Shown here: piece by piece, positions 6,236 to 10,735 of the stretch | How the letters are laid out: every line of letters begins with the position of its first letter | How positions within the stretch are numbered: the first letter of the stretch is position 1 | From: a virus | Lineage: Duplodnaviria; Caudoviricetes | Reading direction: 5' to 3' (one strand) | Virus record (IMG/VR): IMGVR_UViG_3300020047_006434 | Coordinates: 1-64,000 of that record | DNA length: 64,000 nucleotides | Translations under genes and position numbers: made by a program | The notes under the pieces: generated by a model | Databases searched by the model: none | What the model was told of the DNA's origin: nothing | Seen by the model: the letters and a program-made list of their open reading frames with translations, nothing else

Positions 6236-6307
6236 GGGCCGATAGTTTAGCCGGGAGAACGGCGCTTTTGCACGGCGATGACACGGGTTCGACTCCCGTT
6301 CGGTCCA
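6236..6307 (+). tRNA. tRNA-Ala(UGC)
   Basis: Acceptor GGGCCGA/TCGGTCC with G3:U70, discriminator A, anticodon loop TT-TGC-AC, T arm ACGGG-TTCGACT-CCCGT. No encoded CCA. Confidence 0.85.
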
Positions 6308-6312
6308 CTTTT

Positions 6313-7796: not shown

Positions 7797-7931
7797 ATGA
7801 CAGCAACAATCTATTACATTCGCTACGGCGAACAGAAAAGCTACACATGCCCACGTGCGCAAGTGGATGCTGAGATGATCGCCATGTTGCAGACACCAGG
7901 CGTGACGGATGCCTGGTACACACTGAACTGA
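7797..7931 (+). CDS. small hypothetical protein (44 aa, not in ORF track)
   Basis: MTATIYYIRYGEQKSY...WYTLN* after a purine-rich RBS. Confidence 0.45.
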   Translation: MTATIYYIRYGEQKSYTCPRAQVDAEMIAMLQTPGVTDAWYTLN

Positions 7932-8157
7932 CAACACCAGCCACACACCGCCGCACGATTCGCATACCGACCACCACGGCATAGGGCAATGGTACGTAAA
8001 AACCTTCATAGATGTGTCGTGGTCAAACTGCAACGTGGACGGTAGCGGGCCTGCCCCGGCCCTCCTTTATCGTGTAGAGCCTGACCAGTGTGTAGCAGGG
8101 GACGACAACGGGACAACATCGCAGGGACTGACAGGCCGGCAGTGTGTGGATACAAAT

Positions 8158-8231
8158 TGGCGGGTAGCTCAACAGGTAGAGTGATGCACCGAATAGGGCA
8201 TTGGTTGCCGGTTCAACTCCGGCCCCGCCAC
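8158..8231 (+). tRNA. tRNA-like gene with non-canonical anticodon arm (pseudo or undetermined)
   Basis: Acceptor TGGCGGG/CCCGCCA, D arm GCTC-AACAGGTA-GAGT, T arm GCCGG-TTCAACT-CCGGC. Anticodon arm ATGC-ACCGAATAGG-GCAT is irregular (nominal GAA, no U33). Confidence 0.65.
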
Positions 8232-8234
8232 ATA

Positions 8235-8436
8235 GCCATGCGGAATCAATCAATCGCTGACTACGATCTCTGTGGCGAATTGATAAATAATCAATCCGCA
8301 TGGCACGGCAACAACCAACCGAGCATAACGACGAAAGGAGATGTGGAGAGCGGATAACGCAGGTAGTTGATACGAGTGAGAGAAGCGATTTTGCAACCGG
8401 TGGCGGCTAGGGTGGGCCGATGCCGCCACCAAATCG
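8235..8436 (+). other. two long hairpins in the leader of the RAMP gene
   Basis: GCCATGCGGA/TCCGCATGGC (8235-8304) and CGATTT..GGTGGCGGC/GCCGCCACC-AAATCG (8386-8436). Confidence 0.6.
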
Positions 8437-8453
8437 AAAGAGAGAATTGAGTT

Positions 8454-9044
8454 ATGGCAAAGACAACTAGCGAAGTGATCCAGTTACCAGAATTAAAGCA
8501 ACGCCGGGTGATTATTCGTGTTCGTGGCACATCGTCACTGATTACACATCCGTTCGGCAAAAAGGCACTCAAGATGATTGAGGACAAGCAGCAAGGTAAG
8601 GCAAAGTCATCTAAACACGAAGTGCGTAACCCGGAGCAGGAATACGAGGATTCGCTATACATTCGTGAAGATGGAACATTCGGTTTTCCTGCCATCGGAT
8701 TTAAGGCAGCGGTCGTAACAGCCGCCAACGATGCCGGGATTCAGAAAGTGTTGGCCCGCCGTGCGTTCCATGTGGTTGGCGGGGAGTTGGTCAAGATAGA
8801 AGGCGAGCCAACCATGCGCACGGATCGTGTCACCATCGGCATGGGGACAACTGATATTCGCTATCGTGCTGAGTTCAAAGAGTGGGCCGCCGATGTGCCT
8901 ATTGTGTTTAATGAAGGAGTGATTTCCTTGGAGCAGTTGGTTAATCTTTTCAGCATTGCGGGCTTTGGTGTAGGCGTGGGCGAATGGCGGCCAGAGCGCG
9001 ACGGCATTCACGGCACATGGGATGTAGCGGGGGTTGTCGGCTGA
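8454..9044 (+). CDS. stand-alone RAMP/Cas7-like RNA-binding protein (Vipr-like)
   Basis: N-terminal beta strand IIRVRGTSSLITH, FGFPAIGFKAA helix motif, and C-terminal Gly-rich loop AGFGVGVGEWRPERDGIHGTWDV. This is the RAMP (Cas7/Csm3) layout, and the gene lies next to a GGYNN array. Confidence 0.75.
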   Translation: MAKTTSEVIQLPELKQRRVIIRVRGTSSLITHPFGKKALKMIEDKQQGKAKSSKHEVRNPEQEYEDSLYIREDGTFGFPAIGFKAAVVTAANDAGIQKVLARRAFHVVGGELVKIEGEPTMRTDRVTIGMGTTDIRYRAEFKEWAADVPIVFNEGVISLEQLVNLFSIAGFGVGVGEWRPERDGIHGTWDVAGVVG

Positions 9045-9547
9045 TGAATACCTACTCCTGGAAATACAACATTCCCGCCAATGCGCAACGGGTCGGCAGT
9101 GAGTTGGAAGCCATCTACGAAGAGCATGGCAAGTTGACACCACCACTGATTGTGGAAGATGCCCGCAACGATGAACGGGAAACGCACAAGCTTATCGAAT
9201 GGGACGAAGCGACCGCCGCCGAAAAATACCGGTTAGAGCAGGCCCGCTACATCATGCGTAACATCATCGTTGTGCAGTCAACGCCTAACCTGGAAGAGCC
9301 AAAGGAGGAGCAGAAGATCATCAAGTTTCGTGCCTTTGAAAACGTTGAGACGGAAGAGCAGGAACGCTACTTTATGCCCATGCAAGTGGCGGTTAGTCGG
9401 GAAGATACCCGCAACTACATGCTGAAACAGGCAATGATGGCGCTGCAATCTTTTCGCCAAAAGTACGGCATGATTACCGACCTTGCCGCCGTGATTGACG
9501 CCATTGACGCACTAGAGCAACAGTACACCGTCAAGCGAGCAGCATAG
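9044..9547 (+). CDS. accessory protein coupled to the RAMP gene
   Basis: TGA/ATG overlap at 9044. LIEWDEATAAEKYRLEQARYIMRNIIVV block. The stop codon lies 3 nt before the array. Confidence 0.8.
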   Translation: MNTYSWKYNIPANAQRVGSELEAIYEEHGKLTPPLIVEDARNDERETHKLIEWDEATAAEKYRLEQARYIMRNIIVVQSTPNLEEPKEEQKIIKFRAFENVETEEQERYFMPMQVAVSREDTRNYMLKQAMMALQSFRQKYGMITDLAAVIDAIDALEQQYTVKRAA

Positions 9548-9550
9548 CAA

Positions 9551-10007
9551 GGCAGGCGTGGCTTGGCGCGGTTAGGTGAGGTATGGTTCGGCAGGGTAAG
9601 GCCGGGTAAGGCAGGTCACGGTGTGGCAGGTGAGGTAGGGTAAGGCGAGGCTCGGTGCGGTGCGGTCGGGTCAGGCATGACATGGTACGGCATGGCAGGC
9701 AGGGTTAGGCGCGGTTAGGCGTGGTACGGTCTAGTGTGGCAGGGTGCAGTGCGGCAAGGCATAGCAGGCGCGGTTCGTTTCGGCCTGGCATGGCAGGCGT
9801 GGTGAGGCATGGCTTGGCGTAGTGCGGCGTAGTGTGGCGGGGTTGGGCATGGCATGGCAGGCTTGGCGGGGTAAGGCGTGGTAGGGCTAGGCCCGGCAAC
9901 GTGCGGTGCGGTGTCGTAGGCAAGGTCTGGTCGGGCATGGAGGCCGTGGCGTAGTAGGGTGGGGTTAGGTGAGGTAAGGTAAGGCGGGTCATGGCGTGGT
10001 TTGGTTA
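9551..10007 (+). ncRNA. GGY-NN pentamer array (putative multi-guide RNA precursor)
   Basis: 84 in-register pentamers counted by hand; 74 begin GGC/GGT and all have a pyrimidine at position 3; positions 4-5 vary. Register is reset by 4-nt spacers GGCA/AGCA/CGTA. Confidence 0.9.
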
Positions 10008-10022
10008 TATAAGGAGGTGACA

Positions 10023-10085
10023 GTGGACACAACATGGTTTCTTGCGCTACTGGGGCTGGTTTGTTGCCTGGTAGCGCTGCGGTAG
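10023..10085 (+). CDS. putative 20-aa membrane peptide
   Basis: AAGGAGGTGA RBS, then GTG-DTTWFLALLGLVCCLVALR*. Confidence 0.5.
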   Translation: MDTTWFLALLGLVCCLVALR

Positions 10086-10089
10086 AGGG

Positions 10090-10147
10090 GAAGGGGAAAG
10101 CCTAAAGGGATTGTGTTGCACCAACAATCAATCACAAGAAAGGCTTT
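10090..10147 (+). repeat. intergenic element A, copy 1 (copy 2 at 11523-11583)
   Basis: GAAGGGG-AAGCC...TGT.TTGCACCAACA.TCAA...GAAAGGCTTT is shared by both copies. Confidence 0.75.
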
Positions 10148-10152
10148 ACACA

Positions 10153-10263
10153 ATGTTAGTCAAAATTTTATTTGCGCAACCAGCACCGCCGCCACAGACA
10201 CCCCCGCCGCCGGACAAAGATGACGGCCCATATCATGACCCGTGGGGCAAGAAAGGAAAGTAG
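10153..10263 (+). CDS. small Pro-rich protein (36 aa)
   Basis: MLVKILFAQPAPPPQTPPPP... downstream of GAAAGG. Confidence 0.45.
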   Translation: MLVKILFAQPAPPPQTPPPPDKDDGPYHDPWGKKGK

Positions 10264-10270
10264 GTGGCAT

Positions 10271-10363
10271 ATGTGGAAATTCATTTGCGGACTATTCCGG
10301 TGCCCCGGTTGCGGCACATATTACAACCCGACGTTTGGCAAGTGCCCCACCTGCGGGCAGTAG
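10271..10363 (+). CDS. 30-aa zinc-ribbon peptide
   Basis: CPGC...CPTC. Confidence 0.5.
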   Translation: MWKFICGLFRCPGCGTYYNPTFGKCPTCGQ

Positions 10364-10365
10364 GT

Positions 10366-10430
10366 TAATCGCTTCGGGTGCTGGTAGCTGTGAACTATCG
10401 GCACCCTAGGGCAAAAGCAGAAAGAAAGGA
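10366..10430 (+). repeat. intergenic element B, copy 1 (CTGTGAA-loop hairpin; copy 2 at 12013-12078)
   Basis: TAATCGCTT-C, then a GGG...CCC stem with identical loop CTGTGAA and compensatory changes, then GGCAAA..CAGAA.AAAGGA. Confidence 0.8.
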
Positions 10431-10444
10431 CAACGATATTGTAC

Positions 10445-10735
10445 ATGAAACGTCAACAACTTGCAATCATCGCCGCCGTCATTGCACTCGTTTATCTGTC
10501 TATCCTGTGGCCGCTGGAAGTTGGCGCGCAGGAAGTGCCACCGGAGACACCGCAGATCTCTGCGACATGGTTCGTGCCCACCCTGACGCCGTTCGAGCCG
10601 ACCGATACGCCAGAGCCGGTGCCCACGCCGACGGTAACGCGCCGCCCAACGGCAACCCCATCTATGACGCCTACGCCGATTGTGATTCAGCCGCTGCCAC
10701 AGCATTATGTGTGGTTGCCGATTGCGAGAAAGTAG
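10445..10735 (+). CDS. secreted Pro/Thr-rich protein with C-terminal LP-h motif
   Basis: Signal peptide or TM, PT linker, ends YVWLPIARK. Confidence 0.75.
   Translation: MKRQQLAIIAAVIALVYLSILWPLEVGAQEVPPETPQISATWFVPTLTPFEPTDTPEPVPTPTVTRRPTATPSMTPTPIVIQPLPQHYVWLPIARK

Follow-up and report, generated by a model that had tools for sequence, protein, structure and literature searches.

Does the run of GGY-NN pentamers (Y, C or T) that follows two small genes in an 85-kb tailed phage serve as a set of RNA guides, and if so, for which kind of system? The run lies within positions 1-64,000 of IMG/VR record IMGVR_UViG_3300020047_006434, the stretch analyzed here and referred to as the window; the whole record comprises 85,413 bp. 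At 8454-10012 on the plus strand a vipr gene is followed by an accessory, vap-like gene and then by the GGY-NN array, all in the same orientation. The locus is very probably a VIPR (Viral Interference Programmable Repeat) system, consisting of a Vipr protein, the vap-like gene and about eight guides, which would act as a silencing filament. The original prediction, made from the sequence without database searches, had put forward the name VIPR, and correctly so, as preprints from 2026 describe such systems and the protein is homologous to the solved SUSP1 Vipr. The discovery of VIPR was presented in bioRxiv 10.64898/2026.04.26.720920, with 2,664 Vipr sequences and 667 representative systems divided among seven types, staggered arrays included. 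Further preprints of 2026 deal with cryo-electron microscopy (cryo-EM; 10.64898/2026.04.26.720927), with phage-satellite competition and with a language-model survey containing 99 VIPR-like period-5 clusters. In the SUSP1-type VIPR one Vipr occupies each pentamer, and the GGY is flipped out and held by two neighboring protomers (10.64898/2026.04.26.720927). The NN pairs are presented for pairing, and at each repeat the reading of double-stranded DNA (dsDNA) passes over one base (10.64898/2026.04.26.720920, 10.64898/2026.04.26.720927). The outcome reported for the SUSP1 type is transcriptional repression of competing satellites or prophages, with protection boosted by vap1 (10.64898/2026.04.26.720920).

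The 196-amino-acid (aa) product of the first gene was assigned to phrog_4652 (E 3.5e-26) and gave no Pfam, NCBIfam or PADLOC family match. When it was compared with PDB sequences by phmmer a single match was returned, 36pp_D, the 'SUSP1 Vipr protein' (E 3.4e-5), with an alignment spanning residues 128-181, which form the thumb and G-loop. A profile of 44 sequences from its clade aligned over 164 columns with the SUSP1-type Vipr of Shigella phage Z31 (hhalign probability 97.6%, E 4.2e-12); the Z31 protein shows a couple of residue differences from the SUSP1 chain within the segment aligned to the window Vipr. The residues which hold the GGY in SUSP1 Vipr are H17, R138, D177, W178 and R179 (10.64898/2026.04.26.720927), and these align to H32, R138, E177, W178 and R179 of the window protein, the first in the profile alignment with Z31 and the other four in the alignment with 36pp_D. 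Among the 44 homologues R138, W178 and R179 were invariant, and H32 and E177 were conserved in at least 90%.

An AlphaFold2 (AF2) model of Vipr built on the clade alignment reached a mean predicted local distance difference test score (pLDDT) of 83.9 and a predicted template-modeling score (pTM) of 0.78. It shows an RRM-like sheet with beta1 at 16-25, a long beta-hairpin thumb at about 119-141 and a G-loop at 170-187, the last being the least confident stretch within the C-terminal third. The best matches of this model in a Foldseek search of the PDB were all Csm3/Cas7 proteins (E 6.6e-6 to 5e-4; for example 9ash_F at 6.6e-6 and 6ifn_F at 3.1e-5), drawn from type III, type VII and Cas7-11 effectors, with template-modeling (TM) scores of about 0.5 and sequence identities of 6-13%. 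The RAMP/Cas7 identity that had been proposed for the protein, with structure prediction against Cas7/Csm3 as its check, was thereby supported, and the N-terminal beta strand and C-terminal glycine-rich loop that had been seen in its translation correspond to the modeled strand 16-25 and loop 170-187. On its sequence and predicted fold, then, the 196-aa protein is a Vipr. The original prediction further proposed that every subunit holds a GGY and leaves the NN pair on display; this has been reported for SUSP1 by cryo-EM and, with the contact residues kept, would be expected to apply here.

The second gene is joined to the first by a 1-nt overlap between the vipr TGA (9042-9044) and the accessory ATG (9044-9046), an arrangement of translational coupling, and a gene call of exactly the length of the 167-aa open reading frame (ORF) exists on the record (P0121), as had been expected of a coupled 167-aa ORF. 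The array begins 3 nt past the TAG of the accessory gene (9545-9547). Its tract is 48% G, with a lag-5 autocorrelation of 0.54 and a slow decay at lags 10, 15 and 20, as compared with lag-5 values of 0.35 or less in any other 200-nt stretch of the 64-kb window. Among its 82 GGY triplets 60 of the 81 spacings are exactly 5, and GGYNNGGY is found 60 times, as against 3.5±1.9 (maximum 11) in 2000 composition-preserving shuffles. A register-tracking parse gave 92 steps, 78 of them with an exact GGY and all 92 matching it in at least two of three positions, and the NN positions of the array use all 16 dinucleotides. No second such tract was found on either strand of the 85,413-bp genome.

Following a first GGCA at 9551-9554, seven 4-nt steps split the array into eight units (Table 1). 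The units mostly end in '...GGCAT GGCA' and the next unit opens with GGY, which is equivalent to two pentamers sharing one G. Six of the eight hold 11-14 pentamers, within the published range of 9-16 repeats. The original prediction had described a single run of 84 pentamers over 457 nt; while its position 3 nt after the stop codon was right, the count is 92 steps and the single register is replaced by eight units. No structured tail or ribozyme was detected in or between the units, which abut directly at GGCA/GGC, and an Rfam scan of 7800-10600 returned a tRNA at 8158-8231 as its sole match and none inside the array. A coding reading of the array was ruled out by its period of 5 with -1 slips and by the finding of no plus-strand ORF of 41 aa or more. 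Two minus-strand ORFs, at 9705-9992 and 9715-10035 (95 and 106 aa; Pro/Thr/His-rich), were rejected as artefacts of the C-rich complement of the array.

Table 1. Components of the VIPR locus and units of its array, in window coordinates.
Feature	Coordinates	Strand	Composition	Basis
vipr	8454..9044	+	196-aa Cas7-like RAMP (RRM core, thumb, G-loop)	homology, AF2 model
vap-like accessory gene	9044..9547	+	167 aa	phrog_15946, AF2 model
Staggered vrRNA array	9548..10012	+	92 GGY-NN steps, first GGCA at 9551-9554	register parse
Unit 1	9555-9628	+	15 steps: 14 pentamers + GGCA	
Unit 1, alternative parse			11 pentamers + GGCA at 9610-9613, then short remnant	
Unit 2	9629-9697	+	14 steps: 13 pentamers + GGCA, ends GGCAT GGCA	
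Unit 3	9698-9766	+	14 steps: 13 pentamers + degenerate junction AGCA	
Unit 4	9767-9795	+	6 steps: 5 pentamers + GGCA; short, possibly a remnant	
Unit 5	9796-9859	+	13 steps: 12 pentamers + GGCA	
Unit 6	9860-9918	+	12 steps: 11 pentamers + degenerate junction CGTA	
Unit 7	9919-9942	+	5 steps: 4 pentamers + degenerate junction GGAG; short	
Unit 8	9943 to ~10007	+	~13 pentamers, decays into the ribosome-binding site of the next small ORF	

Relatives of the Vipr numbered 512 in IMG/VR and 122 in GTDB species genomes, and the best 80 of each set were taken as 160 related loci. Under a strict rule, which called an array wherever at least 8 of 10 consecutive GGY were in phase, a same-strand array was present at 62/80 IMG/VR loci and 59/80 genome loci (121/160 in all), and an opposite-strand array at 1/80 in each set (2/160). 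Many of the array-less loci are contig ends. The suspicion that homologous genes elsewhere might lack adjacent arrays was therefore not borne out, with 121 of the 160 related loci carrying one on the same strand. A Vipr homologue was also found in 36 GenBank phages, among them Gordonia phage ODay, Pipp, about 27 Mycobacterium phages and Cyanophage Cy-LDV1, with weaker matches in Pseudomonas phage LESphi2 and two enterobacterial phages; in all six annotated phages examined a same-strand GGYNN array adjoins vipr. The clade occurs in prophage-like contexts in Alphaproteobacteria, Chloroflexota, Acidobacteriota, Planctomycetota, Firmicutes, Actinomycetota and others, and the nearest genome-borne relatives, about 53% identical, are spread over many phyla; when clusters were looked up for hints to the host, a single name came back, that of a Competibacteraceae MAG.

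The same layout was observed in the arrays of the clade, where 4682 five-base, 414 four-base and 13 six-base steps were counted. Position 1 of the repeat is G in 97%, position 2 is G in 92% and position 3 is C or T in 98%, with positions 4-5 unconstrained, and the junction consensus is G(0.98) G(0.99) C(0.95) A(0.78) / G(1.0) G(0.88) C(0.88). Unit length, measured from junction to junction, peaks at 10-13 pentamers. Four metagenomic loci (L088-L091) share with the window the operon and the array junctions, and their arrays likewise open directly behind the vap stop codon; their NN series and unit numbers (3-5 units) are different. Their Vipr proteins are 81-84% identical to that of the window in three cases and 98% identical in L089 over the part retained. 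The flanks of L089 are 75-79% identical to the window and its vipr-3'/vap region 91%, and what its array has in common with that of the window is limited to the two leading pentamers and a portion of the last unit (the 5' part of unit 8).

Locus L089 (L089:3760-4360, on an 81,974-bp contig of JGI metagenome 3300056850) was of further interest with respect to its own vipr, which has lost the first ~85 codons, encoding the beta1 strand with the G1-contacting His and a helical bundle. The 117 residues that its 3' part still encodes match the window protein at 98% identity, and the locus retains vap intact together with an array of five units whose guides are different. It may be a counterpart of the phages described as 'VIPR-null, solo vrRNA' in the SUSP1 family. 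Elsewhere among the related loci, two hypothetical-protein genes lie wholly within GGYNN arrays, L002:3614-3883 (Pipp gp43) and L088:5174-5413, and were probably miscalled. Much larger arrays were seen at L076:3579-6131 (IMGVR_UViG_3300031854_000004), L082:2837-3661 and L049:2238-2997, where 0.8 to >1.5 kb of GGYNN is divided into several blocks flanking the accessory gene on either side, which would amount to dozens of guides.

The accessory protein belongs to phrog_15946 (E 2.7e-19) and matched no Pfam, NCBIfam or PADLOC family. Homologues were identified in Gordonia ODay (gp20), Pipp (gp44), Mycobacterium phage Quico (gp58) and Cy-LDV1 (g33), and the family is present at 134/160 related loci, mostly just downstream of vipr. 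Thus, while the original prediction was correct that the family is known and that this locus is new, the accessory gene, which it had thought might be new as well, is not unique. BLASTP detected no similarity to the SUSP1-type accessory protein, and hhalign of a 50-sequence accessory profile against the vap1 of Z31 gave a probability of 0.1%; as the accessory is unrelated to SUSP1-type vap1, the window system is not type II. The AF2 model of the accessory protein (pLDDT 93.3) consists of a helix-helix-helix and beta-sheet domain (residues 1-114), which aligns weakly with winged-helix domains (MexR, Fur/PerR/Nur, forkhead; Z 4.5-5.5 over 65-79 residues), and a long helical hairpin (115-167), for which a wide structure search matched only generic coiled hairpins. 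Foldseek of this model against the PDB returned nothing below E 0.5. A winged-helix-like N-domain with a C-terminal helical hairpin is our tentative assignment. This predicted fold would fit with the several vap proteins described in the discovery preprint as predicted winged-helix- or HTH-like (helix-turn-helix) DNA binders (10.64898/2026.04.26.720920). The probable role of the accessory protein is to bind nucleic acid as a winged-helix-like dimer and so aid silencing.

The nature of this protein also bears on whether targets might be destroyed instead of silenced, with a nuclease or helicase as the effector, the arrangement in VIPR types III-V. Some VIPR types do have predicted nucleases or helicases among their vap genes (10.64898/2026.04.26.720920). 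The accessory protein of the window, however, has no nuclease or helicase family or fold, its sole fold matches being the weak ones to winged-helix domains and helical hairpins, and the locus lies on a phage and not in a defense island, so that destruction of the target is highly improbable here.

By analogy with the family, transcription, processing, ribonucleoprotein assembly, DNA targeting and the biological role of the locus would proceed as follows. The vipr gene, vap and the array are probably carried on one transcript, since operon and array are 3 nt apart and no plus-strand promoter was found. The GGCA/GGC register break would end one filament and start the next and would mark the sites at which the transcript is cut; cutting at the register slips would give six full-length and two short guides, mostly of 12-15 repeat steps. 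Vipr protomers would polymerize along each vrRNA, one per pentamer, with the GGY held via H32, R138, E177, W178 and R179 and the NN pairs exposed. These pairs would read dsDNA with one target base skipped per repeat (NNxNNx...), and the gene to which the filament binds would be silenced at transcription, its most likely bearer being a rival phage, prophage or satellite. On the DNA the accessory protein would assist, probably as a dimer held together by its helical hairpin.

Candidate targets were sought by joining the NN pairs of each guide through one wildcard base (NNxNNx) and scanning both strands. With the array masked, no self-target was found in the phage's own genome, where the best scores were 15-18 of 22-26 bases and the 1-nt skip scored no better than 0-, 2- or 3-nt skips; absence of self-targeting agrees with published VIPRs. 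In IMG/VR, exact 9-NN seeds gave 0 matches for unit 1, 1 for unit 2, 2 for unit 3, 2 for unit 5 and 1 for unit 6, numbers close to the chance estimate for 18 fixed bases, and these matches failed on extension, with 0-4 of the remaining 4-8 NN bases matching and none having its skipped base at the wobble position. The two unit-5 matches, one in a long minus-strand ORF resembling a tail gene and the other in a tyrosine integrase, were rejected as chance, the genes being unrelated and the skipped base falling at codon position 1 and not at the wobble position. In published VIPR targets, which lie within coding sequence, it is the wobble base that is skipped (10.64898/2026.04.26.720920). Seeds of 10 NN gave 0 matches in IMG/VR for unit 8 and the 3' part of unit 3, and 0 matches in metagenome contigs for units 1 and 2. 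When 388 guides from the related arrays and the window's own were scanned against 1.14 Mb of related loci and the phage genome, no clear excess for the 1-nt skip was observed, 17 guides reaching 85% as against 5, 14 and 9 for the control skips. These negative results say little, because exact seeds were required and the host is not identified.

A more specific target has also to be considered, namely the host instead of rival mobile elements, with one or more guides silencing its defense genes. Unit 1 in particular would carry the code for a Cas2-like N-terminal motif and silence the host cas2 operon; the VIPR of the window would then be an RNA-guided anti-CRISPR. When its pairs are taken as codon positions 1-2, unit 1 reads V-[FL]-A-[Y*]-[DE]-[IM]-S-[RS]-[KN]-R-[KN], which we take to resemble the 'AYDIS..KRR' start of many Cas2 proteins, and a codon-wise decode of this kind is compatible with the wobble-base skip in coding sequence noted above. 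When unit 1 was compared with 13 cas2 genes taken from 10 genomes, however, its score of 15 of 22 was at the level of shuffled guides, which averaged 14.7 and of which 118/200 did equally well, and no exact 9- or 10-NN matches to unit 1 were found in IMG/VR or metagenome contigs. The decode is moreover degenerate and the motif was chosen post hoc, which leaves a host-directed system of this kind very unlikely, although the comparison is weak as a test because the host and its cas2 have not been identified.

Several of these observations weigh against a working VIPR system. In 14 of the 92 steps the GGY is degenerate, and two units of 4-5 repeats are too short for typical guides; both features may reflect decay in a portion of the array. 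None of the guides could be matched to a natural target in the phage's own genome or, by exact seeds, in IMG/VR or metagenomes, with the host not identified. The G1-contacting Asp of SUSP1 is replaced here by Glu (E177), a conservative change, and the fold assignment of the accessory protein is weak (Z about 5). No sigma-70-like promoter was detected upstream on the plus strand, which says little as long as the host is not identified, and the role of the register break as a processing site is one that we infer from the sequence and from a figure legend in one preprint.

Could the locus instead be a decaying or domesticated VIPR remnant, its tract now neutral or structural G-rich DNA or RNA such as a G-quadruplex-prone 3' untranslated region? 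The degenerate GGY and the two very short units would be expected of a remnant, as would the empty target searches, and the RNA of the array folds only marginally better than shuffles (z = -1.56). The relative L089, which has lost the first ~85 vipr codons yet keeps vap and array, demonstrates that decay does happen in the lineage. In the window, however, both ORFs are intact and coupled and all GGY-contact residues are conserved, 78/92 repeats are perfect and the junction motif is kept in most units, while empty target searches are to be expected where databases lack the host and its mobile elements. A remnant is accordingly considered unlikely, and the locus is read here as a complete VIPR system.

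With respect to its genomic setting, the 85,413-bp phage genome has direct terminal repeats, was scored by CheckV as 100% complete, and has large ORFs matching primase/helicase, tape measure, portal, large terminase and major head families; no DNA-level relative was found among GenBank phage collection records. The absence of cas1, cas2 and CRISPR repeats that had been noted for the window was confirmed, with no PF01867 (Cas1) or PF09827 (Cas2) match in the entire 85-kb genome and no CRISPR-like repeat-spacer array within the window. In this phage the operon lies downstream of the primase/helicase and tRNA genes. The tRNA gene at 8158-8231 is 220 nt upstream of vipr (Rfam 47.9 bits) and its anticodon could not be assigned by ARAGORN ('???', a 2-base anticodon call); an ordinary tRNA-Ala is located at 6236-6308 of the window. 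Immediately 3' of the array, at 10012-10085, are a strong ribosome-binding site (AAGGAGGTG) and a GTG-start ORF for a 20-aa hydrophobic peptide (VDTTWFLALLGLVCCLVALR), and L089 keeps this site and the ORF start right behind its own, shorter array. In the two closest full-length relatives (L088:565-3286 and L091:886-3642; Vipr 81-84% identical) a serine recombinase and a divergent HTH (cI/cro-like) gene pair immediately precede the operon, a position that is the early lytic region of temperate phages.

VIPR is of interest as RNA-guided dsDNA recognition by a gapped code and as a proposed ancestor of CRISPR RAMPs. Only the type II systems of SUSP1 and P. fulva have been dissected; for types III and V there is small-RNA sequencing only. 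While it leaves the picture of the VIPR family unchanged, the present locus is a clean and complete example of a different branch, with another accessory protein and eight head-to-tail guides set apart by no more than a 1-nt register slip, on a closed 85-kb genome, and could become a test case for the maturation of tail-less staggered arrays, the role of a winged-helix-like accessory protein and the targets of phage-borne guides.

In comparison with Cas7/Csm3 (6IFN, 9ASH), Vipr shares the RRM core, thumb and G-loop, known for the window protein from a fold model, and the family shares periodic guide-RNA binding with base flipping. Identity is low at 6-13%. The window carries neither CRISPR repeats nor cas genes (cas1, cas2, cas10 or others), and no Cas family was matched in Pfam or PADLOC. 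The period in Cas7/Csm3 is 6 nt with 1 flipped, whereas in VIPR it is 5 nt with 3 bases sequestered, and a VIPR guide would be gapped and would read a dsDNA target with a 1-nt skip. The closest annotated relatives are the actinophage pairs ODay gp19-gp20, Pipp gp42-gp44 and Quico gp57-gp58 (phrog_4652 with phrog_15946), which are 36-40% identical in Vipr and 23-36% in the accessory protein and agree with the window in gene order and in having GGYNN arrays next to the genes. These pairs are annotated as hypothetical only. Some have the array upstream of the two genes or between them, and in Pipp it is annotated as a protein-coding gene, gp43.

Type II VIPR (Escherichia phage SUSP1 and a Pseudomonas fulva prophage), represented in our comparison by Shigella phage Z31 and Pseudomonas phage LESphi2, resembles the window system in having a homologous Vipr that keeps the thumb Arg and the G-loop motif (D/E)-W-R-P, a two-gene operon, same-strand GGY/NN arrays and a phage origin. 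Vipr identity is about 26% overall, with a pairwise match that covers only the C-terminal third, and the accessory proteins are unrelated (hhalign probability 0.1% against vap1). In type II each repeat tract is followed by an invariant structured 3' tail (a pseudoknot) and separate vrRNAs of ~100 nt lie on both sides of the genes, whereas in the window no such tail separates the guides and a single uninterrupted tract lies downstream. By these sequence features the window system is a VIPR and is not type II. Its kind, its code and its staggered layout have already been published, and what is new here is the locus. The nearest description is that of staggered-array VIPR (10.64898/2026.04.26.720920, fig. 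S18; published vrRNA length 9-16 repeats, 'staggered arrays ... 1 nt overlapping'), which has in common with the window a Vipr RAMP, a small vap gene and GGY/NN pentamers on a phage, together with tail-less units of 9-16 repeats overlapping by 1 nt and no self-targeting. To that description the present analysis adds, as measurements of its own and not taken from the preprint, the GGCA/GGC junction consensus and the 414:13 bias of four- over six-base steps.

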